Below, in pieces: positions 6,590-40,485 of a stretch of 64,000 nucleotides of DNA. This stretch comes from an uncultured Mycoplasmatota bacterium (GTDB taxonomy: Bacteria; Bacillota_I; Bacilli_A; RF39; UBA660): contig CANRSQ010000002.1 of NCBI GenBank assembly GCA_947642475.1, positions 608-64,607 of the forward strand. Reading direction: 5' to 3'. A model generated the notes under the pieces. That model was not told where the DNA came from. It ran no database searches and worked only from the letters and a program-made list of their open reading frames with translations. The position numbers and the translations under genes are program-made. Within the stretch, counting starts at the first letter, position 1; every line of letters starts with the position of its first letter.

Positions 6590-8650
6590 CTATTGTTTAT
6601 CAATTTTGAAGTTTGCTTGATAACTATTTCCTAAATCAATTTCATCAACATCAATTTTATAACCTAATTTTTCAATTTCATCCGCACAATTTCTAATCAA
6701 ACGAATAACTTCGATAAAATTGTTATCATTTGCTGGAGCACTAACAACATTTTCAGTTACATTGCTTGCCATAGTTTCTGCAGTAGGTGCTTCTAAAATG
6801 TCTGATGATGGAATATCCGTAATAACCGGTTCCGCAGGTGCAGTTTCAAAACTTGGTGCAGGATTTACATTAATAGGTTCTGGAGTAACAACTGGCTGAA
6901 CAACACTAGGTTCACTTGGAGTCTCTATCACTGGAGCAGCCACTGGTTCAATTGGAGCCATTGGTGGAACTGGAATAGTGTCAACAGTAGGTTCAGAAAC
7001 AGCTACTGGAGGAACCATAGTAGATTCCGCAGGTTGCGTCATCATTGGTTCTGGATTAATTTGTCCTTGTGGCTCAAATGTTTGAACTGGTTCTGGCATA
7101 GGTTCAGGTACTACCGGTTGTTGAGGCTCAAATTGTTGAATTGGCTCTGGCTTTACAGACATTTCAGGTTGAACTAATTCATTGTAAAGTGAAGATTGAT
7201 TCACCTCATTAATTGGTTCTGTATTATTAGGAGTTTCAGCCACAACCTCATTTATACTTGTAGACTCAGTCATAGAAACAGGTTCTTCAGGTGCTTTTGA
7301 ATTCATAGCTTTTTGAACAGCCTCAGCAATACTCATAGACTCATTATTAGCTACTGGTTCAACAACATTAGGCGTTTCAGTTTTCATTTCATTAAAATTA
7401 GATTCACTTTCATTAATATTTCCAACAACCATTACAGGCTCTGGATTTACTGGCTGTAAATCAACCGGAGTTTGATTAAAAATACTGTCAAAACTTACTT
7501 CATTAGTAACAACTGGCTCTGGTTTTGGAGCTTCTTCAGGTTGTACAATTCCACTAAAATTAATAAATTTATTTTGTTCTTCATTTACTAAAGGAATTTC
7601 ATTAACTTCTTCTTGAGTTTGAGGCTCAGGATTAATCACAGGTTCTACTGGAACACTAGTTTCAAAAGCATTAGAAACAGGATTATCTTGTTTCATTAAA
7701 TTCGAAATATCTTTATTTTCTTGCGGCGCATTAATATCTTGAGCTTCACGCATAATTCTATCTATATCCATACCCTTTTCATCCTTTCTCATAAGTTTTT
7801 CTTCTAAATCCTTTGGTAAACTAACCCTAATAATTTCATGACTACCTCTAGCCACAGCCCTAACAGGCTTTTTAATAGGCTCGTTTTCACTAAATAAATC
7901 TTCTACTGGTTCACTTTTAACAAAAGGAACTTTAACCTTTTCCGCTTCCTGACTATCAAGCTCATTTGATAATTCTAAAAATTGATTGTTAACCTGAGTT
8001 TCAGTTACTTTAACTTCACTATTATCCATAGGCAAAACATCCTTATCCCCTAATAATTCTTTAATCGCATCGTCTGTTTTCTTAACAGTTAGACGTTCAT
8101 TTATAATTTTATTAAGCATTTCTATTTGCATATTTTTATCATGAATTCTAAGTAAAGATCTTGCATGTCTTTCCGAAATTTTTCCATTCAAAAGAGCATA
8201 CTGAACTTGATCATCTAAGTTAAGTAATCTTACCTTATTCGCAATCGTAGATTGTGTTTTACCTAATTTTTCCGCTAATTGAGCTTGCGTAATATAGCCC
8301 ATATCTAAAATTCTTTTATAAGATACAGCCTCTTCAATTGGAGTTAAATTTTGTCTTTGAACATTTTCAAGTAAAGCAATTTCTTCACTTTCTTTATCAT
8401 TTAAGTTAATAACAATAGCAGGGATAGTACTTTTATTTGCAATTTTACTAGCTTTATATCTTCTTTCACCAGCAATAATTTCATACTTATCGCCAATTTG
8501 ACGCACAACAATAGGTTGAATAACACCATACTTACGAATAGATTCAGCAAGTTCATTCAACTTATTTTCATCAAAATGAATACGAGGTTGAAATCTATTT
8601 GGTAATACATCTTCAATATTTAAAGACGTCAAATTGCCATATTCATACAT
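6590..8650 (-). CDS. parB: ParB/Spo0J-family protein with a very long Pro/Glu/Val-rich low-complexity insert
   Basis: N-terminal ParB/Srx domain with a GERRYKA (CTP-binding GERRxRA-type) box at about 8456-8470, an HTH (TQAQLAEKLGKTQSTIANKV) and ISERHARSLL. It lies next to rsmG, as noc and spo0J do in Firmicutes. Residues about 200-640 are low complexity. Confidence 0.8.
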   Translation of the reverse strand: MYEYGNLTSLNIEDVLPNRFQPRIHFDENKLNELAESIRKYGVIQPIVVRQIGDKYEIIAGERRYKASKIANKSTIPAIVINLNDKESEEIALLENVQRQNLTPIEEAVSYKRILDMGYITQAQLAEKLGKTQSTIANKVRLLNLDDQVQYALLNGKISERHARSLLRIHDKNMQIEMLNKIINERLTVKKTDDAIKELLGDKDVLPMDNSEVKVTETQVNNQFLELSNELDSQEAEKVKVPFVKSEPVEDLFSENEPIKKPVRAVARGSHEIIRVSLPKDLEEKLMRKDEKGMDIDRIMREAQDINAPQENKDISNLMKQDNPVSNAFETSVPVEPVINPEPQTQEEVNEIPLVNEEQNKFINFSGIVQPEEAPKPEPVVTNEVSFDSIFNQTPVDLQPVNPEPVMVVGNINESESNFNEMKTETPNVVEPVANNESMSIAEAVQKAMNSKAPEEPVSMTESTSINEVVAETPNNTEPINEVNQSSLYNELVQPEMSVKPEPIQQFEPQQPVVPEPMPEPVQTFEPQGQINPEPMMTQPAESTMVPPVAVSEPTVDTIPVPPMAPIEPVAAPVIETPSEPSVVQPVVTPEPINVNPAPSFETAPAEPVITDIPSSDILEAPTAETMASNVTENVVSAPANDNNFIEVIRLIRNCADEIEKLGYKIDVDEIDLGNSYQANFKIDKQ

Positions 8651-16408: not shown

Positions 16409-16436
16409 ATCATCACCTATATAATATATTTAAAAA

Positions 16437-16454
16437 CCACTGGATAAGCAGTGG
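16437..16454 (-). terminator. Hairpin plus U-run between rpmH and rnpA (possible partial terminator)
   Basis: Minus strand reads CCACTG-cttatc-CAGTGG followed by TTTTTA, located between the rpmH stop (16459) and the rnpA start (16408). Confidence 0.4.
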
Positions 16455-16458
16455 CTAA

Positions 16459-16584
16459 TTAACGAGCTAAAACTTTGCGGCCCTTTTTTCTTCTTCTTTT
16501 AATAATATTAGTTTGCATTCTAGCGAAGAAACCCATTTTTTTACTTCTTCTTCTATTATTAGGTTGAAAAGTTCTTTTTGACAT
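16459..16584 (-). CDS. rpmH: 50S ribosomal protein L34
   Basis: Hand translation gives [41 protein letters not shown] (41 aa), with a GAGGAG RBS upstream. It is below the ORF-track size cut-off. Confidence 0.85.
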
Positions 16585-16676
16585 AGATAATTCACTCCTC
16601 TCAAGATAAATTTTTCATTGCTTTATTAATTATATAGATAAAACCTTGATTTGTCAACACTTTTTTCTCTTCAAAG

Positions 16677-16912
16677 TTTTCCACAATAAAAAAATTTCAA
16701 ATAATTAAAAAAATTTTTTCCAGATATTTTTTCCACCACAGTTTTTTTTGAATTAAAATATAATAGCACCTTTTTCAACATATGTGAATAACTTTTAAAT
16801 AATTCACAATGTGAATAAATAACTTTTCCACAATTTTTGTGGAAAAACTTCATTTTCCGCTAAAATTCGACAAAAAATCCATGTGGATATCTTTTTTTAA
16901 ACTTTTTCCACA
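16677..16912. promoter_or_regulatory. oriC left part: DnaA-box cluster upstream of dnaA
   Basis: TTTTCCACA at 16677, 16824 and 16904. TGTGGAAAA at 16838, forming an inverted pair with 16824. TGTGGATAT at 16882. TGTGAATAA at 16783 and 16810. The gene-strand switch occurs here. Confidence 0.8.
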
Positions 16913-16981
16913 GTTTTTATAGAATTTTCCGTAAAAATAATGTAAAATGGTGTTAAGAAACTTTAAAGCAGATAGTGGGGG

Positions 16982-18322
16982 ATGCTTATGGATTTAGAAA
17001 GCACTTGGAGTGTCTTTTTAGCCAAAATAGAAGAGAAAGTAAAACCAGTTCTCTTTGAAACTTGGTTTAAAGACACAAAATTAATAAAACTAACTGAAGA
17101 TACCGCTTTAGTAAAAGTAGAGTGGGATGTTCAAATAAATCACCTAAAAGAAAATTATGGTGAATTAATAAAAGAAACATTTATGGATGTCACCGGATCA
17201 TTATATAAATTTGAATACACAACAATTGAACCAATAACAAAAGAGGAAGAAGAAATAAAAGATAATAACGAAGCCTTATTTGAAAGTGGCTTAGATAAAA
17301 AATACACATTTGAAACATTTATCCAAGGAGAAAGTAATAAATTTGCAAAAGCAATAGGGCTAGCCGTAGCCGAAAAGCCAGGAAGCATGTATAATCCATT
17401 ATTTATATACGGAAATAGCGGACTCGGAAAAACCCACTTAATGCACGCAATCGGTAACTATATAGCCGATAGTACAAATAAAAAAGTATTATACGTAACA
17501 AGTGAAAAATTTGTTGACGACTTTTTAAGTCTATATCGAAAAAATGATAATAACTTCAAAGCTGTGGATAGTTTTAAAAGAAAATATCGCGATATTGATG
17601 TTTTAATGATAGACGATATTCAATACCTTGAAATAGCAAGTAAAACTCAACAAGAATTTTTCAACACCTTTAATGAATTACACACGCAAAATAAACAAAT
17701 TATCATTTCTTCAGATAGATCACCAGACGATCTAAAAAAACTAGAAGAAAGATTAAGAACAAGATTCAATTGGGGACTAACAATCGACATATTGCCACCT
17801 GACTTTAATTTAAGAATGGCAATCCTTGATAAAAAAATAGAAGCACAAGGGATTAGTAGCTTTGTACCAGAAGAAGTAAAAGAATATATCGCTAGTAACT
17901 GTACAACCGATATCAGAAAGTTAGAAGGGGCCCTAACCAGAGTATTTGCCTACGCAACAATCATGAATGGCTCAGAAATAACCATTGAACTAGCAGTTGA
18001 AGCCCTAAAAGATTATATTGGAAAACATATAATATCAAAAAATAAAATAGATAAAGTAATCCAAATAGTTGCGGATAACTACAATATAACTGCCGAAGAT
18101 ATCAGAAGCAAAAAAAGACTAGCTAAAATAGCCGTTCCAAGGCAAATAGGAATGTATATATGTAGAACATACCTAAAGGAATCACTACCAAAAATCGGAA
18201 GTGAATTCGGTGGAAAAGACCATACAACCGTAATGCATTCTGTAGATAAAATAAAAAGGGAAGTTAGTAAAGATAAAACACTAGAAGAAGAAATCAATAG
18301 ATTAATTGAAAAAATAGGATAG
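16982..18322 (+). CDS. dnaA: Chromosomal replication initiator DnaA
   Basis: GNSGLGKTHL Walker A, AAA+ core, C-terminal DNA-binding domain (GGKDHTTVMHS). Confidence 0.97.
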   Translation: MLMDLESTWSVFLAKIEEKVKPVLFETWFKDTKLIKLTEDTALVKVEWDVQINHLKENYGELIKETFMDVTGSLYKFEYTTIEPITKEEEEIKDNNEALFESGLDKKYTFETFIQGESNKFAKAIGLAVAEKPGSMYNPLFIYGNSGLGKTHLMHAIGNYIADSTNKKVLYVTSEKFVDDFLSLYRKNDNNFKAVDSFKRKYRDIDVLMIDDIQYLEIASKTQQEFFNTFNELHTQNKQIIISSDRSPDDLKKLEERLRTRFNWGLTIDILPPDFNLRMAILDKKIEAQGISSFVPEEVKEYIASNCTTDIRKLEGALTRVFAYATIMNGSEITIELAVEALKDYIGKHIISKNKIDKVIQIVADNYNITAEDIRSKKRLAKIAVPRQIGMYICRTYLKESLPKIGSEFGGKDHTTVMHSVDKIKREVSKDKTLEEEINRLIEKIG

Positions 18323-18337
18323 GGGAAAACAATTTCT

Positions 18338-18460
18338 TTTTCCACAATTTTTACACACCCTAAAAATAGCCATTAAAGTGTGTAATTAAAAGAAAAAACA
18401 GACTTTTCCACACAATCCACAACAATAATAAAAATACTATTAATAAATAATAAAAAAAGG
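18338..18460. promoter_or_regulatory. oriC right part: DnaA boxes plus AT-rich tract between dnaA and dnaN
   Basis: TTTTCCACA at 18338 and 18404, TTTTACACA at 18349, CAATCCACA at 18413, then an almost pure A/T run at 18421-18458 (candidate unwinding element). Confidence 0.7.
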
Positions 18461-19594: not shown

Positions 19595-19728
19595 AATAGG
19601 TTCTTTTTTATTTTTCCACAATATTTTTCAAAAAAACATATAATTACGACAAAAAACGCTAAAATTTGACAAAGAAAAAGAGTATAAGAGAGTGGTCAGA
19701 TTTTTTATCTGAAAACAGGGGGGATTTT

Positions 19729-20175
19729 ATGTTAGAATATGAAATAACAAGTAAAACATGTGCGTTAATATCAATAAGTGAAGAAGAAACAGAAATAATT
19801 GAGTTAGGTAGGAAATTTATCATTCAAAATAAACTATCACAAATTTTAAAACAAAATTGTGAATTTTACGGTTGTTCCTTAGAAGGGCGTATAAAAGGAA
19901 GTCAAACGCAACTAGGAATGAAATATAAACTTCCAATAGTAATAGAAAATACAAGAGAAATAATATTTTTTCCAACAACATCGCCAAGATTGCAAGAATG
20001 TAGTTGGATATCACTCAAAAATATTAAAAATTATAAAGAAAATGAATTTGGAACTATAATAGAATTTGTAGATAATAATGAATTAAACCTACCAATTTCC
20101 TATGAAACAATAGAAAATCAAATATTTCGAGCTACAAAACTAATGTTGATATCACGCCAACGAGGAAAAAAATAG
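19729..20175 (+). CDS. comK: ComK-family competence transcription factor
   Basis: Matches B. subtilis ComK blocks: FYGCSLEGRIKGS (FFGSSYAGRKAGT), KLPIVIENTREIIFFPTTSPRLQECSWIS (KPPIMVDPSNQIFLFPTLS..PQCGWIS) and LPISYETIENQIFRAT (LPISYNSFENQVYRT). The likely start is the ATG at 19729, after a GGGGGGA RBS. Confidence 0.7.
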   Translation: MLEYEITSKTCALISISEEETEIIELGRKFIIQNKLSQILKQNCEFYGCSLEGRIKGSQTQLGMKYKLPIVIENTREIIFFPTTSPRLQECSWISLKNIKNYKENEFGTIIEFVDNNELNLPISYETIENQIFRATKLMLISRQRGKK

Positions 20176-21419: not shown

Positions 21420-23344
21420 TGGAAGAAAACAAAGAACATTATAACGAATCCGATATTCAGGTTTTAGAAGGTCTAGAAGCCGTAAGAAAACGTCCTGGAA
21501 TGTATATAGGAACAACTGATGTTAAAGGACTTCACCATTTAGTATGGGAAATAGTTGATAATGCTATCGACGAAGCTTTAGCAGGATATTGTGATAATAT
21601 CGAAATTATCATCAACAAAGACAATTCAATCACTGTCAAAGATAATGGTCGTGGAATTCCAACAGGAGTACATCCAAAAACTGGATTATCAACTGTTGAA
21701 ACAGTATATACCGTATTACACGCCGGTGGAAAATTCGGTGGAGGTGGATACAAAGTATCAGGTGGACTTCACGGAGTAGGAGCTTCAGTAGTTAATGCCT
21801 TATCAACAAGTGTAACCGTTACAGTATATAAAGATGGTCATATTCACGAAGCTAAATTCGAAAACGGTGGAAAAATCACTCAAAAATTAACAATAATAGG
21901 TGATTGTGAGCCAGACAGAACAGGAACACATGTAACTTTCAAACCAGACCCAGATATCTTCGACACAGACATCTATGACTATAATACTTTAATGGTCAGA
22001 ACAAGAGAACTAGCTTTCTTAAATAAAGGATTAAGTCTAACATTAAGAGATGACCGCGATGAAGAAGATACAACAGGAGAAACATTCCATTATGAAGGTG
22101 GTATTAGTGAATATGTTAAATATTTAAACGCTAATAAAACACCAATTCAAAATGAAATTATTCATTTAGAAGGACAGCAAGATGGAATTATGTTCGAAGT
22201 TGCCCTTCAATATAACACAGGATACACAGATAGTGTTTATTCATTCGTTAATAACATCAACACACATGATGGTGGTACCCACGAAGAAGGTGTCAGAAGA
22301 GCTTTAACAAGAATAATCAATAACTATGCTAGAAAAAATAATATATTAAAAGAAAAAGATGATTCTTTAAGCGGTGAAGATGTCAAAGAAGGATTAACAA
22401 TGATCGTTTCTTGTAAACATCCAAACCCACAATTTGAAGGACAAACCAAAGGAAGACTTGGAAATTCAGAAGTAAGAAAGCTAGCTGATAATGTCTTCGC
22501 CGAAGGTTTTGAAAGATATCTTTTAGAACATCCAGATGAAGCAAAAATTATTGTGGAAAAAAATATGACAGCTGCTAGAGCCAGAGTAGCCGCTAAAAAA
22601 GCCAGAGAATTAACAAGAAGAAAAAGTGACTTAGACGTTATAAACTTTGGTGGAAAACTAGTAGACTGTAAGGATAAAGATCCAATTAAATGCGAAATAT
22701 TCCTAGTCGAAGGAGATTCAGCAGGTGGATCTGCTATTAAAGGTAGAGACTCAATGACCCAAGCAATCCTTCCATTAAGAGGTAAAATCTTAAATGTAGA
22801 AAAAGCAAGATTAGATAGAGCTTTATCAAATGAAGAAATAAGAACTATAATTACCGCTTTTGGAACAGGAATAGGTCAAGACTTTGATTTAAAAAAATTA
22901 AGATACCATAAAATAATAATCATGACCGATGCCGATGTCGATGGATCACATATCAGAGTCTTATTATTAACACTATTCTATCGCTTCTTTAAGCCAATAG
23001 TAGAAGCGGGACACGTTTATGCTGCCCAACCACCATTATTCTGTATTAAACACGGAAAAACCATTAAATACGTATTAAATGAGGAAGAAAGAGACGCTTA
23101 TTTAGCTACTTTAAACCCAAATACTAAATATGATATTTTACGTATGAAAGGTTTAGGTGAAATGGACGCCGAAGAATTAAATGAAACAACAATGGATATA
23201 AACACAAGAGTATTAAGAAAAATAACCGTAGATGACGCTATAGAAGCCGATGCTGCCTTCACAAAACTTATGGGTGAAGAAGTAGAACCAAGAAGAAACT
23301 TTATCGAAGAAAATGCAGTATATGCAGAAAATTTAGATATATAG
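21419..23344 (+). CDS. gyrB: DNA gyrase subunit B
   Basis: GHKL ATPase ([16 protein letters not shown]), Toprim ([23 protein letters not shown]). The start overlaps the recF stop (TAATG). Confidence 0.97.
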
Positions 23345-23354
23345 GAGGTAAATC

Positions 23355-25865
23355 ATGGATAAAGATAAATTACAAGAGAACAACATAGTAGATGAAATAG
23401 AAAAATCATTCCTTGAGTATTCGATGAGTGTAATTGTATCCCGTGCTTTACCAGATTTAAGAGACGGATTAAAACCAGTTCACAGAAGAATACTATATTC
23501 AATGTACGAATCAGGTTATACTCCTGATAAACCACATAAAAAGAGTGCCAGAATCGTCGGAGACGTAATGGGTAAATATCACCCACACGGAGACTCATCA
23601 ATTTATGAAGCAATGGTAAGAATGGCCCAAGACTTTAGCTACAGATATATGTTAGTAGATGGTCATGGAAACTTCGGTATCATTGAAGGTTCTGGAGCCG
23701 CTGCAATGCGTTATACCGAATCAAGATTATCAAAATTATCATTAGAGTTATTAAGAGATCTTAATAAAGATACTGTAGACTTTGATCCAAACTTTGATGA
23801 ATCATTAAAAGAACCAAAAATACTACCTTCAAGATTTCCAAATATCTTAGTAAATGGTACAATGGGAATCGCTGTAGGTATGGCTACAAACATTCCACCA
23901 CATAATTTAAGCGAAGTTATTGATGGATGTGTCGCATATATAGATAATCCAGATATAGATACAGATGGATTGATGCAACACATAAAAGGTCCAGATTTCC
24001 CAACCGGCGCAACTATTCTAGGTAATAGTGGAATAAAAAAAGCCTATGAAACAGGAAAAGGAACCATTACAATCCGAAGTAAAGCTGAAATAGAAGAAAA
24101 AAATGGTAGACAATATATAGTTATTACAGAAGTTCCTTATGGAATAAAAACATCAGATTTAAAAGACAAAGTAGCTGAATTAGTTCACAATAAAACAATT
24201 GATGGAATTTCTGATTATCATACCGATTTAAAAAAAGGTGTAAAAATTACAATAACTCTTAAAAAGGACGCAAATGCACAAGTAGTCTTAAATAACTTAT
24301 ATAAACATACCGCATTTCAAACAACTTTCGGTATAACACTATTAATGCTTGATAATGGAGTTCCAAAAACTCTAGGATTAAAAGATATAATTTCAAAATA
24401 TATCGATTATCAAAAAGAAATAATCATCAGAAGAACAAGATTCGACCTAAATAAAGCCGAAAATCGTGTTCATATACTAGAAGGTTTAAAAATAGCTTTA
24501 GACAACATAGATGCCGTTATAAAGCTAATTAGAGGATCAAAATCTGACGAGGAAGCTAGAACAGGCCTTATGAATGATTTCAAACTTAGTGAAGCACAAG
24601 CAAATGCTATTCTAGAAATGAAATTAAGAAGATTAACAGGCTTAGAAAGAGAAAAAGTAGAAGATGAATTAAGAGAACTACTCGAAAAAATAAAATATTA
24701 TAAAGAAGTCCTTGATTCAGAACAAAAAATCTTAGGAATAATCAAAGATGAAATGCTAGAAATCAAAAACAAATATGGTGATGATAGAAGAACCAATATA
24801 GATATGACAGCTATCGATTATATTGAAGATGAATCACTAATACCTGTGGAAAACGTTGTAATAACATTAACAAATAATGGATATATTAAACGTATGACTA
24901 GTGAAACCTACAAAACCCAAAACAGAGGCGGGGTAGGTATCAAAGGAATGGCCACAAATGAAGACGATTTTGTGGAAAAACTAGTACCAATGACTACCCA
25001 CGATTACTTAATGTTCTTCACAAATCGTGGAAAAGTATACAGAATCAAAGGATATGAAATTCCGCAATATAGTAGACAATCAAAAGGATTACCAATAATA
25101 AATCTTTTACCACTAGAAAAAGATGAAAAGGTAAGAGCAATGCTAAAAGTAAGCTCAGATGACGAAAGTCAATATATTGTATTTTGTACACAAAGGGGGC
25201 TAGTTAAGAGAACCGCACTTTCAGAATTTGAAAATATCAGATCAAACGGAAAAATTGCAATAAGTTTAAAAGATGATGATGAATTATTATCAGTTAAGAA
25301 AACAACTGGGGAAAACGAGGTTATAATTGCCTCATCAAATGGTCGTATGATAAGATTCGATGAATCAGAAATTAGAGTAATGGGTAGAACAGCATCAGGA
25401 GTTAAAGGTATAGAACTTGGTGACGGTGTCTGTGTAGGTTGTGAAATTGCCCTTCCAGAACAACAAATATTAGTTGTAACAGAAAAAGGTTATGGAAAAC
25501 GTACATCAGTAGAAGAATATCGTATGACTCACCGTGGAAGCAAAGGTGTAAAAGCCCTTAATATTACTGAGAAAAATGGTAATATAGTATCATTTAAATT
25601 AGTAAACGGAAATGAAGATTTAATGATAATAACAGATAGTGGAATTATTATTAGATTAGGAATCGAACAAGTTTCAAATACTGGTAGAGTAGCTCAGGGT
25701 GTTAGATTAATTCACCTAAAAGACAACCAAAAAGTTAGTAATGCCGCTCTTCTAGAAAAAGAAGTGGAAAACGACCAAGAAGAGTCAGACGACACAAAAG
25801 AAATAGTGGAAAATTCTGAAGTTAAAGAAGAAACTGTGGAAAACTCAGAGCAAAATAACGAATAA
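23355..25865 (+). CDS. gyrA: DNA gyrase subunit A with an acidic C-terminal tail
   Basis: AAMRYTE active-site Tyr motif, QRDR region ([14 protein letters not shown]), C-terminal beta-pinwheel repeats. Confidence 0.97.
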
Positions 25866-25868
25866 GAT

Positions 25869-25902
25869 AAACTATGTTTCACGTGAAACATAGTTTTTTT
25901 TG
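25869..25902 (+). terminator. Probable gyrA intrinsic terminator, formed by the first parS palindrome
   Basis: A 28-bp perfect palindrome AAACTATGTTTCACGTGAAACATAGTTT (25869-25896) runs into a T-run (TTTTTTTT to 25901), starting 4 nt after the gyrA stop. Confidence 0.55.
25875..25890. other. parS site 1, TGTTTCACGTGAAACA
   Basis: Perfect consensus 16-mer. The palindrome extends over 25869-25896. Confidence 0.85.
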
Positions 25903-25948
25903 TATAAAAATATAGTTAAAGCAACATATTTATTACTTCCATACATGA

Positions 25949-25964
25949 TGTTTCACGTGAAACA
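25949..25964. other. parS site 2, TGTTTCACGTGAAACA
   Basis: Perfect 16-mer. 18-bp palindrome at 25948-25965. Confidence 0.85.
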
Positions 25965-26073
25965 TTAATATACTGATAAGAATGTTTAAAAGTTTGATTA
26001 TATCAGTATAAAAAGTAAAAAATTAAATAACAATGTGGAAATATATAATTTTAAATAACAAATTCTGAATTAT

Positions 26074-26089
26074 AGTTTCACGTGAAACT
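26074..26089. other. parS site 3, variant AGTTTCACGTGAAACT
   Basis: Perfect 14-mer core. 24-bp palindrome at 26070-26093. Confidence 0.8.
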
Positions 26090-26171
26090 ATAAATAAAGA
26101 TAAAAAAAACATTCCAATTATATAAAGCAGTAGTAATACAAAAAAACAATTCAACTTATTTTATCAACCAA

Positions 26172-26187
26172 TGTTTCACGTGAAACA
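26172..26187. other. parS site 4, TGTTTCACGTGAAACA
   Basis: Perfect 16-mer. 18-bp palindrome at 26171-26188. Confidence 0.85.
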
Positions 26188-26297
26188 TGGATACACTGAC
26201 AAATACGTTAAATAGTTTAAATTTTAAACCAAAAAATAGAAAAACAAAGTAAATTATGTGGAAAACAATTCGAAATTAGATGAAAAATACAAATTAT

Positions 26298-26313
26298 AGT
26301 TTCACGTGAAACA
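26298..26313. other. parS site 5, hybrid AGTTTCACGTGAAACA
   Basis: Perfect 14-mer core at 26299-26312. The outer positions are asymmetric. Confidence 0.8.
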
Positions 26314-26408
26314 CAAATAGAAACATTTATCATTCTAATTAATTATTAAAATATAATTTTGAAAATAGAAATAAATTATAATCAAAAAAGATTAGTAATA
26401 AAAAATAA

Positions 26409-26424
26409 TGTTTCACGTGAAACA
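26409..26424. other. parS site 6, TGTTTCACGTGAAACA
   Basis: Perfect 16-mer. 20-bp palindrome at 26407-26426. Confidence 0.85.
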
Positions 26425-26444
26425 TTGGTAAACAAAAAAACTAT

Positions 26445-26460
26445 AGTTTCACGTGAAACT
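26445..26460. other. parS site 7, variant AGTTTCACGTGAAACT
   Basis: 20-bp palindrome at 26443-26462. Its centre is only 36 bp from the centre of site 6. Confidence 0.8.
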
Positions 26461-26583
26461 ATGAAAATTAAAAAATAGTAAAGAAATATTTATTCATGTG
26501 ACATATATGATAATTTATAAATAAAATGTGAAAAAAATATAAAATTATATAAGAAAGTGTCATTATAGCAATCACTAACTCAA

Positions 26584-26599
26584 TGTTTCACGTGAAACA
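26584..26599. other. parS site 8, TGTTTCACGTGAAACA
   Basis: 22-bp palindrome at 26581-26602. Confidence 0.85.
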
Positions 26600-26686
26600 T
26601 TGTTGATAAAAATATAACACCTTAGTCAAAATAATCACTCAGAAGAAAAAATAAAATATATATAAACAGTAGTAGAATAAAATCAT

Positions 26687-26702
26687 AGTTTCACGTGAAA
26701 CT
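26687..26702. other. parS site 9, variant AGTTTCACGTGAAACT
   Basis: 20-bp palindrome at 26685-26704. Confidence 0.8.
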
Positions 26703-26790
26703 ATAAAAGAAAGTAAATCCGTAATTTCAAATAATTGCGATCCTATTAAGTAATTGAATAATAATGATAAAAAAATAGAGCAAAACCTAA

Positions 26791-26806
26791 TGTTTCACGT
26801 GAAACA
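26791..26806. other. parS site 10, TGTTTCACGTGAAACA
   Basis: 22-bp palindrome at 26788-26809. Confidence 0.85.
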
Positions 26807-26896
26807 TTAAAATAATAACTAAAATATAAAAAATAATATTGTGGAAAAATAGGATAAATAGATGTGGAAAAACAAAATTTACAGAAAAAACAGTAT

Positions 26897-26912
26897 TGTT
26901 TCACGTGAAACA
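26897..26912. other. parS site 11, TGTTTCACGTGAAACA
   Basis: Perfect 16-mer. Confidence 0.85.
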
Positions 26913-26959
26913 TAGATATAAGTTTGCCTTTTAAAAAAAAATAATATATTATTAATACT

Positions 26960-27036
26960 GGTACAACATTTATGTTCGAACCAGGTCAGAATCGGAAGAT
27001 AGCAGCCTTAAGGACCACTAAATGTGTGTACCTTTT
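26960..27036 (+). ncRNA. ffs: Small (4.5S-type) signal recognition particle RNA
   Basis: Contains the conserved SRP domain IV sequence CCAGGTCAGAATCGGAAGATAGCAGCCTTAAGG with a GGAA tetraloop. The 5' GGTACAACATTTA pairs with the 3' TAAATGTGTGTACC, followed by TTTTAT. A promoter-like TTGCCT(26924)-17-TATTAT(26947) places the TSS near G26960. Synteny with tadA/dnaX matches Bacillus scr. Confidence 0.75.
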
Positions 27037-27051
27037 ATTATAGGTGATAAT

Positions 27052-27456
27052 ATGAACAAATATATGGACTTAGCATTTAAAGAAGCTAAAAAATCAATAA
27101 AAACAGATGATGTTCCAGTAGGTGCGGTTATCGTAGAAAATGGAGTAGTAATAGCCAAAGCACATAATACCAAAGAGAAAAAACACATTGTAACAAGACA
27201 CGCAGAAATAAATGTTGTGGAAAAAGCATGTAAAAAAAAGAAAAATTGGTATTTAAATAACTGCGAATTATATGTAACATTAGAACCATGTAAAATGTGT
27301 ATGGGAGCAATAGAACAGGCAAGAATTAAAACAGTAATTTATGCCGCCCCAAGAGATAAAAACGACAATTTAAAATCACCACCGCTCAAACAAGGAGAAG
27401 GTGTGGAAAAATCCCGAGAAATGTTAAAATCCTTTTTCGAAAACAAGAGAAAATAA
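27052..27456 (+). CDS. tadA: tRNA-specific adenosine deaminase
   Basis: HAE...PCKMC zinc-binding deaminase motifs. The likely start is the ATG at 27052 (MNKYMDLAF). The ORF-track start at 27022 would overlap the SRP RNA. Confidence 0.9.
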   Translation: MNKYMDLAFKEAKKSIKTDDVPVGAVIVENGVVIAKAHNTKEKKHIVTRHAEINVVEKACKKKKNWYLNNCELYVTLEPCKMCMGAIEQARIKTVIYAAPRDKNDNLKSPPLKQGEGVEKSREMLKSFFENKRK

Positions 27457-27521
27457 TGTAAAGTTATTTTCTTTTATTGTGGATAAATGGTATAATTATA
27501 TATAGTTCAGAGGGTGATAAA

Positions 27522-29243
27522 ATGTATCAAGCTTTATATAGAAAATACCGTCCACAAACCTTAGAAGAAGTAGGTGGACAAGATACAATTGTAAAAATAA
27601 TAAAAAATTCCATAAACAAAGGTAAAATAAACCATGCTTATTTATTTGCAGGCCCAAGAGGTACCGGAAAAACAAGTATTGCTAAAATATTTGCAAAAAT
27701 GGTAAACTGTGAACATCTAAAAAATGGAATTCCCTGTGGAAAATGCGTTAGCTGTACGCAAACAAATAATAGCGATACAATCGAAATAGATGCTGCTTCA
27801 AACAATGGAGTAGATGAGATAAGAGAACTGAGAAATAACGTTAATTTGGTACCATCATATGGGAAATACAAAGTCTATATAATTGATGAGGTTCATATGC
27901 TTACAACAGGCGCATTCAATGCATTATTAAAAACATTAGAAGAACCTCCAGCACACATAATATTTATTTTAGCTACAACTGATCCTCATAAAATACCAGA
28001 AACAATACTTTCTAGATGTCAAAGACTAGATTTTAAAAAAATTAGTGAAAATAGCATAGTAAAACGATTAAAAGACATAGTAAAAGCAGAAAATATAACA
28101 ATCGAAGAAGGAGCATTAAGAGAAATTGCCCGTCTGTCTGATGGAGGAATGCGTGATTCAATAGGAATGCTAGATCAAGCCATCGCTTATACGGACGGAA
28201 ATATTACCCCAAAAGATATACATGATATTAACGGAACTTTGACAGCCGAAAGCTTAAAAAATCTAATAAATGTAATAATTACAAGGAAAATAAAGGAAAT
28301 ATTCGAAATATTAGATAATTACAACGAAAATGGTAAGAATTTTGTCAAATTAACAGAAGAAATCATTACCTTTATGCGCAATACGTTATTATATAAAAAT
28401 GCCAAAGAATATTTCATTGGAGTAAACGGAGATACCGATATATATGAAGAAATTTCCAGGGAAATAACAACAACAGAAATATTAAGATATATAGAAATCT
28501 TAAATAACACCATTTTAGAAATGAAAACAACCAATAATACAAAATTATTACTAGAATTAGCAATAATTCAAATGATAAATGAAGAAAACTATCAAATAGT
28601 TAACCACGAAATACAAAAACCTGTGGAAAACTCGATAAAAAGTGTAGAAAAACAAAAAAATGAAACCTATGTTAAAGAAACATCTATTACAAAACCAACA
28701 GTAGAAGAAAAAACTGTGGACAAACCAGAAGAAACACCAAAAGAAACTTCACAACCAATAATAGAAAAACAAAAAATTAGTGAAGAAGGTAAAAAAGAAT
28801 TAGAAAAAATAAAAAACATAAGAATAGATAATACTTTAGCAGAATTTTCTAAAAAACATTTACAAGAACTAAAACCACAAATAGATAGTTTTAATGAGTT
28901 TTTACTAGATCCAGAAATTAGCCCATTCATATCAATTATATTAGATGGAACCCTAAAAGCCGCTAGTAACAAAAACCTAATTTTTGTCTATAAAAACGAA
29001 AGAACATCTAATTTATTTAATGAAAATATAATAAATGTGGAAAAAACAATAGAAAAAGTCTTAAAAAACAAATATAAAGTAATCGCAACCGATATAAATC
29101 ATTGGGAAAAAATAAAAAATGAATTTAATAGTAAAAAAAGAGAGTATAATTATACTGAAGAAACATTCAATCTTGAAGAATTATTTAACAAAAACGAAAC
29201 AAATGACTTTAGCGATTTTCAAGATATAATAGAATATAATTAG
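27522..29243 (+). CDS. dnaX: DNA polymerase III subunit tau/gamma
   Basis: GPRGTGKTS Walker A, zinc module CGKCVSC, SRC motif (LSRCQRLDF). The likely start is the ATG at 27522 (MYQALYRKYRP) after GGGTGA. Confidence 0.95.
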   Translation: MYQALYRKYRPQTLEEVGGQDTIVKIIKNSINKGKINHAYLFAGPRGTGKTSIAKIFAKMVNCEHLKNGIPCGKCVSCTQTNNSDTIEIDAASNNGVDEIRELRNNVNLVPSYGKYKVYIIDEVHMLTTGAFNALLKTLEEPPAHIIFILATTDPHKIPETILSRCQRLDFKKISENSIVKRLKDIVKAENITIEEGALREIARLSDGGMRDSIGMLDQAIAYTDGNITPKDIHDINGTLTAESLKNLINVIITRKIKEIFEILDNYNENGKNFVKLTEEIITFMRNTLLYKNAKEYFIGVNGDTDIYEEISREITTTEILRYIEILNNTILEMKTTNNTKLLLELAIIQMINEENYQIVNHEIQKPVENSIKSVEKQKNETYVKETSITKPTVEEKTVDKPEETPKETSQPIIEKQKISEEGKKELEKIKNIRIDNTLAEFSKKHLQELKPQIDSFNEFLLDPEISPFISIILDGTLKAASNKNLIFVYKNERTSNLFNENIINVEKTIEKVLKNKYKVIATDINHWEKIKNEFNSKKREYNYTEETFNLEELFNKNETNDFSDFQDIIEYN

Positions 29244-39966: not shown

Positions 39967-40485
39967 ATGAAAGCAACAGGTGTAGTTAGAAGAATAGACG
40001 ATTTAGGAAGAATAGTAATTCCAAAAGAAATAAGAAAAACATTAAGACTAAAAAATGGAGAAAATCTCGAAATATTTGTTGACGAAAATGAAAACATAAT
40101 ATTAAAAAAATATAGCCAAATAGATAAAATAAAAGACTTCGCAGATGCCATAACCGATGCAACAAACAATATAACAAAAAATTCTGTTTTCATAACAAAT
40201 ACCGATTCATTCGTATCCGTAAGTGGCAAAAAAAAAGAATATCAAGACGAGCCATTATCAAACGAAATCATTACCATGATCAATGATAGAAAAGACGTAA
40301 ACTCAAACAATATAAAATTAACCGAAGAAAAAGAAGAACCAGAAAACTTTATATTCTGTCCAATAATCGCAAACGGCGATGCAATAGGATCATTAATGAT
40401 AATGTCAGAAGAAGAACTAACCGAAAATGATTTAAAAACCTTAAAAATAATTTCTTCCTTTTTAGCTAAACATATTGAACAGTAA
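39967..40485 (+). CDS. spoVT: AbrB/SpoVT-family regulator with C-terminal GAF-like domain (SpoVT-like)
   Basis: N-terminal swapped-hairpin motif (TGVVRRIDDLGRIVIPKEIRKTLRL) plus a C-terminal domain of about 120 aa. Located near mfd, as spoVT is in B. subtilis. Confidence 0.75.
   Translation: MKATGVVRRIDDLGRIVIPKEIRKTLRLKNGENLEIFVDENENIILKKYSQIDKIKDFADAITDATNNITKNSVFITNTDSFVSVSGKKKEYQDEPLSNEIITMINDRKDVNSNNIKLTEEKEEPENFIFCPIIANGDAIGSLMIMSEEELTENDLKTLKIISSFLAKHIEQ

Follow-up and report, generated by a model that had tools for sequence, protein, structure and literature searches.

Chromosomal parS sites, at which ParB loads SMC, most commonly come as one copy or a few closely spaced copies, with Bacilli as the scattered exception, and clustered sites avoid the SMC collisions that distant sites cause (PMC8357415); reviews still count the variation in parS number and the clustering of sites among the open questions (PMC7333895). 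The closest precedent for density is the cluster of Myxococcus xanthus, where 22 parS (22-24 sites), bound by the host ParB in vitro, occupy ~3 kb located 4 kb upstream of an essential, adjacent parAB operon, with a mean spacing of ~140 bp and with degenerate sites around TGTTCCACGTGGAACG (Iniesta 2014, PMC3899335). Bacillus subtilis, whose Spo0J (ParB) forms clamps with cytidine triphosphate (CTP) that load SMC at parS, has 8-10 sites scattered over ~0.75 Mb and mostly intragenic, and in the ParA-less ParB-parS-SMC systems of Streptococcus pneumoniae and Staphylococcus aureus four or few dispersed sites and a canonical ParB serve mainly SMC recruitment and origin organisation (PMC7333895, PMC7022226). 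The related protein Noc of Bacillus and Staphylococcus reads scattered Noc-binding sites (NBS) of a different code. Among plasmids, the iterated centromere sopC of the F plasmid consists of 12 tandem 43-bp repeats. Here we describe eleven parS sites packed into about 1 kb between gyrA and ffs, the gene of the small signal recognition particle (SRP) RNA, in a stretch of 64,000 nucleotides (the window, 64 kb) from an uncultured Mycoplasmatota bacterium (assembly GCA_947642475.1, contig CANRSQ010000002.1, positions 608 to 64,607).

According to our analysis this array is a further case of the known dense, origin-proximal parS clusters, met in an unexpected lineage and locus, and it is not unique. 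It shares density and closeness to the origin with the M. xanthus cluster, in contrast to which its sites are of perfect consensus, have a mean spacing of ~100 bp, occupy a gyrA-ffs locus of a low-GC Bacilli host and have no parA or canonical parB nearby. The 16-bp consensus and the phylum are those of B. subtilis Spo0J-parS, whereas every site lies here in one 1-kb non-coding gap; with the two cocci, likewise Firmicutes, the host shares the lack of a parA beside its ParB-family gene, and it differs from them in having 11 clustered sites and a visible paralogue of Noc type. We suggest, with a probability of roughly 0.7, that the gyrA-ffs spacer serves the chromosome as a compact centromere-like locus, dedicated to this role and read by a canonical ParB that is encoded outside the window.

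Exactly 11 copies of the 14-mer core GTTTCACGTGAAAC are present in the window, always inside 25876-26911, against 0.00 copies expected from dinucleotide-preserving shuffles, and elsewhere in the 64 kb there are zero matches to the 16-mer even when three mismatches are allowed. Seven of the eleven sites read TGTTTCACGTGAAACA and agree at 16 of 16 positions with the parS consensus, the 16-bp palindrome TGTTNCACGTGAAACA; the remaining four, which are three class II sites (AGTTTCACGTGAAACT) and one hybrid at 26298 (AGTTTCACGTGAAACA), deviate from it at the outermost position or positions only. The sites follow each other at 74, 125, 98, 126, 111, 36, 139, 103, 104 and 106 bp, and their symmetry reaches 0-7 bases past the 14-mer on each side, giving palindromes of 14-28 bp. 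The first-pass annotation, made from the letters alone, had named these eleven sites as the canonical chromosomal parS and the sole parS cluster of the 64 kb, had split them into seven, three and one, had listed the same positions and spacings, and had noticed the extended palindromes, a tract free of open reading frames (ORFs) of at least 60 aa and a distance of ~8-9 kb from oriC; all of this is reproduced by the counts, the shuffles, the site readings and the ORF scan, with the distance now at 8.9 kb.

When 55 sites of the window and eight relatives are pooled, a longer consensus of 20-22 bp emerges (YAATGTTTCACGTGAAACATTR), to which the flank positions 1-3 belong, together with a symmetric minor class, TATAGTTTCACGTGAAACTATA; the extended duplex forms are AATGTTTCACGTGAAACATT for class I and TATAGTTTCACGTGAAACTATA for class II. 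The site and about three flanking bases are the only thing that recurs over the array, and Tandem Repeats Finder, run beside a second repeat finder, reported nothing beyond one 2.3-copy stretch of 35 bp. An iteron-like or sopC-like tandem repeat was rejected for the window array, as the spacings range from 36 to 139 bp and nothing but the site is repeated. The likeness to a plasmid-style iterated centromere, which the first-pass annotation had drawn, has consequently been given up: many ParB-type sites in less than 1 kb are common to both, and some related loci (L044, L052, L088) are true tandem arrays, but the window array is chromosomal, of chromosomal parS consensus, with unique spacers and no regular head-to-tail unit, and its neighbours are gyrA and ffs/tadA and not a parA-parB operon.

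The comparison of the same spacer in related genomes, proposed by the first-pass annotation as a check for copy-number variation, proved informative. Relatives were fetched by GyrA as 22-kb loci with GyrA 82-95% identical (82-100% over all homologues), and the nine GyrA-fetched loci carry 2, 4, 4, 5, 6, 7, 9, 9 and 11 copies of parS, each time in the orthologous gyrA-to-ffs/tadA spacer of 213-2235 bp and with zero copies outside of it in every locus. An alignment of five spacers, from genomes whose GyrA is 88-95% identical, can be aligned only at the parS cores and over ffs with its promoter. Since the spacers cannot be aligned while parS is kept, it is the sites themselves on which selection acts, and what these alignments portray is purifying selection on each site combined with a rapid turnover of the array. 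Fixed position, varying copy number and decay of spacers speak together for a selected centromere-like platform and not for a repetitive extragenic palindrome (REP) or a miniature inverted-repeat transposable element (MITE).

Among the matches listed in a wider scan, described below, ~40 further loci of low-GC Bacilli metagenome-assembled genomes (MAGs), some of them labelled 'Erysipelotrichaceae', 'Mycoplasma' or 'Tenericutes', have an array between gyrA and dnaX, with a GyrA 58-84% identical to that of the window, and the gyrA-linked array can thus be regarded as a trait of a large clade. These loci were pattern-selected for at least 3 parS and carry 3-15 of them, which extends the range of copies up to 15. 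Regular tandem arrays with units of 36, 41-42, 43, 53-55 or 126 bp occur in sister lineages, among them 15 units of 36 bp in L044, 13 of 43 bp in L052 and 11 of 53 bp in L088, and they show that arrays grow by duplication of a unit. The 36-bp distance between parS 6 and parS 7 of the window recurs as the 36-37-bp unit of long tandem arrays in L009, L044 and L099.

The scan covered one genome per species in 185,579 species with a pattern of three parS spaced 98-128 bp, and dense parS triplets were found in at least 120 stretches across many phyla. The matches listed include, besides the low-GC Bacilli MAGs, Clostridia, Planctomycetota, Acidobacteriota, Bdellovibrionota, candidate phyla radiation (CPR) bacteria and Haliangium, and, among cultured organisms, Arthrobacter, Microbacterium, Nesterenkonia, Flavobacterium, Dorea and Atopobacter; several of these loci are denser than the window array. 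The first-pass annotation had presented the array as a departure from dispersed single sites, and this has to be corrected, for M. xanthus provides a precedent, and at least 120 such stretches show that dense chromosomal arrays are not rare. Among the matches listed, those from other phyla have their arrays next to parB, rsmG or mnmG, and the adjacent ParBs have R173 and/or G201 (Caulobacter numbering, here and below) wherever the motif search could read them, several matches being unreadable; the exceptions are second, Noc-type (TERHAR) paralogues. No description of the arrays of this clade was found in the literature that we searched on dense or tandem chromosomal parS arrays and on parS in Mollicutes-like Bacilli. 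As a separate observation, four contigs labelled Muribaculaceae (L017, L047, L062, L096) and one labelled as a Methanobacteriaceae archaeon (L088) range from 22 to 31% GC and code for GyrA, GyrB or DnaX 35-78% identical to those of the window, with gyrA-linked parS arrays in four of the five (L017 shows DnaX only); almost certainly they come from Bacilli and were binned with the wrong MAGs.

Table. Features of the window and parS or NBS content of related loci (L-numbers; positions in their rows are within the locus)
Feature	Position	Strand	Remarks
parS 1	25875-25890		TGTTTCACGTGAAACA; within 28-bp perfect palindrome 25869-25896, T-run after
parS 2	25949-25964		TGTTTCACGTGAAACA
parS 3, class II	26074-26089		AGTTTCACGTGAAACT within TATAGTTTCACGTGAAACTATA
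parS 4	26172-26187		TGTTTCACGTGAAACA
parS 5, hybrid	26298-26313		AGTTTCACGTGAAACA
parS 6	26409-26424		TGTTTCACGTGAAACA; paired with parS 7 at 36 bp
parS 7, class II	26445-26460		AGTTTCACGTGAAACT
parS 8	26584-26599		TGTTTCACGTGAAACA
parS 9, class II	26687-26702		AGTTTCACGTGAAACT
parS 10	26791-26806		TGTTTCACGTGAAACA
parS 11	26897-26912		TGTTTCACGTGAAACA; 11 bp upstream of ffs promoter -35
Non-coding gyrA-to-ffs spacer holding whole array	25866-26949		no ORF of at least 60 aa, all 11 sites inside
gyrA, left boundary	23355-25865	+	Pfam PF00521/PF03989 on homologues
Promoter-like site of ffs	26924-26952	+	TTGCCT, 17 bp, TATTAT; block kept in alignment of relatives
Small SRP RNA (ffs), right boundary	26950-27046	+	Rfam RF00169, 60.8 bits
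TadA-like deaminase ORF	27022-27456		Pfam on identical assemblies and relatives
oriC region (rnpA/rpmH-dnaA gap)	16409-16981		clustered TTTTCCACA DnaA-box-like motifs
Noc-like ParB-family gene, 686 aa	6590-8650	-	sole ParB-family gene in window
NBS-like ATTTCCAGGGAAAT	28452-28465		1 mismatch to Noc-binding consensus, inside dnaX
NBS-like ATTTCCCGGGAAAA	35355-35368		1 mismatch, inside mfd; also in L001, L003
Window			11 parS
L010			2 parS
L001			4 parS and one degenerate site
L007			4 parS
L005			5 parS, one of them a 1-mismatch site
L009			6 parS, 37-bp tandem
L003			7 parS
L011			9 parS
L012			9 parS, ~290-bp unit
L016	2264-2903		circular long-read MAG; 126-bp tandem unit, each holding an NBS and a parS; 6 NBS
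L092	2430-3697		9 perfect NBS and 2 one-mismatch, interleaved with 10 parS
L050	1118-1567		4 NBS, 4 parS
L052	2163-3032		block of 4 NBS, then 13 parS; 13 sites in 0.5 kb
L046	4760-5697		perfect NBS in same spacer as parS
L044			15 sites in 0.5 kb
L051			13 sites in 0.8 kb
L093			12 sites in ~0.46 kb
L099			12 sites in ~0.44 kb

With the dnaA start at 16982 and a GC skew that flips its sign at ~16-17 kb, the array can be placed ~8.9 kb to the right of oriC, which is an origin-proximal location typical for parS. The longest ORFs in the spacer are of 59 aa, overlapping the end of gyrA, and 55 aa. In the terminator scan the first site, with a 12-pair stem followed by TTTTTTTT, forms a terminator-like hairpin after gyrA, and among the eleven it is the only one with a T-run; the first site after gyrA is an extended palindrome in all relatives examined (L003, L005, L007, L010, L011). 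At the other end, the position of the last parS just before the -35 element of ffs is kept in the alignment of L001, L003 and L005. Promoter-like matches inside the spacer number 15 against 11.9 +/- 3.5 in shuffles, and this lack of any excess is consistent with a transcriptionally quiet island. With a terminator-like first site and a promoter after the last one, the tract appears to be transcriptionally quiet and insulated. As a side remark, occupancy of the last parS by ParB might modulate ffs transcription, or the ffs promoter might bound ParB sliding.

The motif TGTGGAAAA, which is the reverse complement of the DnaA-box-like TTTTCCACA, was noticed 27 times in the window, where 1.1 copies are expected; it changes strand at oriC and clusters within ~20 kb of it, for instance at 16677-16912, 18338-18412 and 22552-29044. 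The parS spacer contains three copies in the window, eight in L012 (seven on the minus strand, about one per 290-bp parS unit) and 0-2 in other relatives, with none in L001, L003 and L005. On these counts the motif was rejected as a conserved component of the array; it could represent DnaA boxes, a polar motif of the leading strand or a bias of coding sequence.

How such a tract may work can be outlined from established ParB biology, in which each parS is a gate where the ParB-CTP clamp closes and then slides off. Eleven gates in ~1 kb would multiply ParB loading at one point, and the outcome would be one ParB-DNA partition complex, tightly confined to a place 8.9 kb from oriC, that organises and segregates the origin region and most likely loads SMC. 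As no parA is visible, SMC loading and origin organisation are the likely outputs, in the manner of S. pneumoniae and S. aureus. One point source would avoid the SMC collisions of scattered parS, and the terminator-like first site together with the promoter past the last site would shield the tract from transcription. We suppose further that tandem duplication or deletion of a one-parS unit (36, 43, 53, 126 or ~290 bp long in relatives), through unequal recombination or slippage, lengthens or shortens the array, and that spacers would decay fast while selection would keep each surviving site perfect. We infer ParB binding, SMC loading and a segregation role at the array from the same ParB biology.

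The first-pass annotation took the protein encoded at 6590-8650 for the cognate ParB, and this assignment does not stand, as its structural and family matches and its specificity residues are of Noc type. Its structural relatives in the PDB are Geobacillus Noc (210 bits) and, behind it, B. subtilis Spo0J (164 bits), and its best family in NCBIfam is nucleoid_noc (TIGR04285), with 269.8 bits, which is below the cut-off of 315, the generic parB_part scoring 167 bits. The domains ParB_N and HTH_ParB are confined to residues 1-200, the CTP-binding motifs GERRY and ENVQR are intact, and the specificity residues, read from GKTQSTIANKVRLLN...SERHAR, are Q173, K179, N184 and R201, with Q162, G170, K171, N178 and R204 as aligning anchors in the window protein. 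This includes the NBS-specifying combination (Q173, a lysine at 179 or 184, and R201), and the Noc-like proteins of relatives have Q, K (or T, in one of them), N (or D) and R at the four positions. As with noc in B. subtilis, the gene comes after rsmG. A Noc-specific N-terminal region of ~26 aa, an amphipathic membrane helix, is required for Noc function (PMC4331003, PMC8429893). Such a helix is absent here: the ParB N-domain begins at about residue 7, the ORF starts at the first ATG, GTG or TTG past the upstream in-frame stop, which leaves no place for an extension, and the proteins of relatives are equally short at this end. The window protein has a disordered linker of ~435 aa in which E, P and V abound, the proteins of relatives being 270-370 aa in total, and it has in common with them a C-terminal domain of ~44 aa that presumably resembles the Noc C-terminus. 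A short stretch of the linker, MDIDRIMREAQDINAP (residues 294-309, window 7724-7771), is kept in relatives as well and may serve to bind a partner.

By these features the window protein is to be classed as a Noc derivative without the membrane helix, and not as an orthodox Noc. According to Jalal et al. 2020 (PMC7383237), parS-specific variants in a deep mutational scan always had R173, all extant ParBs keep R173 and G201, and NBS, with its A1 and C6, is specified by Q173 together with R201 in the presence of a permissive lysine at 179 or 184. On parS DNA, no signal is obtained with B. subtilis Noc (PMC8429893). From Q173 and R201 and the published specificity rules it follows that the window protein is probably not a parS binder and thus not the cognate reader of the array. 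With the Noc-NBS system of Bacillus and Staphylococcus it shares the helix-turn-helix residues Q173, K179 and R201, presumably the C-terminal domain, and the place next to rsmG, and it differs from this system in having no membrane helix and in the array sites nearby, which are parS (G1/A6) and not NBS (A1/C6).

The distribution of NBS supports a division of labour. The array sites are four mismatches away from the NBS core ATTTCCCGGGAAAT (A at 1, C at 6), and no NBS relics were found in the parS spacer of the window; NBS-like sites with one mismatch occur twice in the window against 0.01 expected. In distant relatives with GyrA ~64-74% identical, perfect NBS of B. subtilis type (tATTTCCCGGGAAATa) accompany parS in the gyrA-dnaX spacer, often in strict alternation within a tandem unit of 125-126 bp. 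Perfect NBS number 58 in the 40 Bacilli loci (280 kb) and zero in 575 kb from other phyla, and in 14 of the 40 Bacilli loci they lie in or beside the parS array. NBS of these relatives are thus arranged in origin-proximal tandem arrays, unlike the scattered NBS of Bacillus and Staphylococcus, and no description of such arrays or of NBS/parS composites was found in the literature searched. Two distinct perfect palindromes side by side speak for two different readers, and since perfect NBS across the clade make the Noc code appear conserved, a separate reader of parS is to be expected. In the simplest reading of these sites, a Noc-type protein would read NBS and a canonical ParB would read parS; in the window, the Noc-type paralogue more probably reads the NBS-like sites, and the hypothetical reader of the array, a canonical ParB (R173...G201), would quite likely be encoded outside the 64 kb.

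Several results weigh against a centromere read by such a ParB. In the 64-kb window no Walker A motif of a ParA was found in any frame, and no SMC gene was seen in its annotated parts, ~25 ORFs at 44-64 kb lying outside that scan. A tblastn search with the ParB N-domain yielded no canonical ParB in the window or in the 22-kb oriC loci of relatives, only the Noc-type gene being detected within the clade, and no canonical ParB or parA was found near the Noc-like gene in two further lineages. The spacings of the sites show no helical phasing in the unbiased set (p = 0.11) and no other positional rule that would hint at a higher-order structure. The phasing signal apparent in the pattern-selected set was discarded, since it stems from recurring 36-bp units and from the search pattern. 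There is also no parA beside the Noc-like gene here or in L137, L138 and L139.

An alternative, which we consider unlikely yet worth keeping in view, is that Spo0J/ParB was lost and the helix-less Noc paralogue took over the centromere role, so that it would itself read the parS array. Its gene is the only one of the ParB family in 64 kb around oriC, and likewise in the loci of relatives, it occupies the classical rsmG-adjacent par/noc locus, and its CTP-binding motifs are intact; without the amphipathic helix nucleoid occlusion in the B. subtilis style is improbable (PMC4331003, PMC8429893), the score is under the Noc cut-off of NCBIfam (270 vs 315 bits), and residue 184 is N or D instead of K, with T179 in one relative. 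Against it stand the specificity rules, by which R173 always goes with parS and Q173/R201 select NBS (PMC7383237), the silence of B. subtilis Noc on parS (PMC8429893), and the perfect parS and NBS that relatives keep in one repeat unit, which is hard to explain by a single reader. In S. aureus, too, noc and parB lie apart on the chromosome. In this improbable case the Noc-type protein would be the only ParB-family CTP clamp of the clade, loading at parS here and at alternating NBS and parS in relatives, and it would constitute a natural exception to the ParB/Noc code, with Noc reverting to a ParB-like role. In a weaker version, two different CTP clamps, ParB and a derivative of Noc, would be loaded together from a single tandem repeat at composite origin-proximal centromeres.

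Much less can be said for the palindromes being REP/MITE-like elements, stacked terminators or RNA hairpins and not protein-binding centromere sites, which we regard as very unlikely. Each site is able to form a hairpin, the first one with its T-run scores as a terminator, some sites of relatives are perfect palindromes of 30-32 bp with variable outer arms, and the spacer lies between gyrA and ffs, taken in this reading as two highly expressed genes; but the T-run is limited to the first site, the core is the exact parS consensus that is arrayed beside parB in unrelated phyla, and around the core there are no terminal repeats, target duplications or conserved body as expected of a MITE. A scatter of the palindrome over other regions, which the first-pass annotation had named beforehand as the sign of a REP/MITE-like element, is contradicted by zero copies outside the spacer in the 64 kb and in nine related 22-kb loci.

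The long palindromes themselves are found at L011:12561-12590, L011:13003-13032, L007:12752-12781 and L003:12807-12836, with outer arms that vary by site (gcactaat...attagtgc, ataatgat...atcattat). Eight of the 55 pooled sites extend by at least 8 bases, which we judge to be above chance for AT-rich DNA, this being an estimate without a computed control; hairpin-templated correction or selection for a cruciform or terminator structure is possible for such arms. Structural selection on the extended palindromes in general was set aside, as the flank positions 1-3 are part of the longer consensus and long variable complementary arms occur in a minority only.

An even smaller chance is left to the idea that the CACGTG-centred palindrome is an operator of an unrelated transcription factor for ffs/tadA or gyrA. 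In its favour is the last site at 11 bp upstream of the ffs -35, conserved in several relatives; eleven sites over 1 kb, with copies drifting between 2 and 15 in relatives, do not resemble an operator, and the identity to parS at 16 of 16 positions and the same arrays beside parB elsewhere favour ParB.

Metagenome assembly is prone to errors at repeats, and the four assemblies of this species were all built from short reads, yet a collapse or expansion of the repeat can be practically dismissed, as four independent assemblies from different samples agree on the 11 sites and their spacings, the inter-site spacers are unique and therefore easy to assemble, and a circular long-read (metaFlye) MAG of the clade, L016, has its array at the same locus. 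Spacers were compared for three of the four assemblies and differ from the window by 0-4 mismatches; in the fourth the first spacing is 73 instead of 74, i.e. one base off. The array is thus genuine, and the concern about an artefact, raised by the first-pass annotation, is answered.

If the gyrA-ffs spacer is indeed a compact centromere, Bacilli, which are usually cited for scattered parS, would include a large lineage with an ultra-compact one, in small genomes without a parA beside the ParB-family gene. The clade offers a natural copy-number series, with 2-15 perfect sites at the same locus and with all forms from strict 36-bp tandems to arrays with decayed spacers. It also confronts parS sites with a sole visible ParB-family protein that is of Noc type and has no membrane helix; identifying the binders would test the generality of the four-residue ParB/Noc specificity code and may reveal a new role of Noc-derived CTP clamps at the origin. 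What the analysis adds is the clade-wide copy-number series, the correction of the neighbouring 'ParB' to a Noc derivative, and the alternating NBS/parS arrays in relatives.

A few minor observations concern the genes around. The longest TadA-like ORF begins within the SRP RNA gene, and it is more plausible that this gene starts further on, at the in-frame ATG at 27052 with AGGTGA before it; the TadA-like genes of relatives are called at 134 or 144 aa. Sporulation-associated genes (SpoVT-like, BofA-like, SpoIIR) were seen in the window (39967-40485) and in relatives (L001:16071-16256; L138:17412-17951), which suggests spore-former ancestry or lifestyle in a clade whose MAGs are often labelled Mycoplasma/Tenericutes. 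A gene of the ComK family lies between dnaN and recF throughout the clade (19666-20175 in the window, ~6330-6830 in L001-L012), and it is an unusual insertion within an otherwise classical dnaA-dnaN-recF-gyrB-gyrA block.

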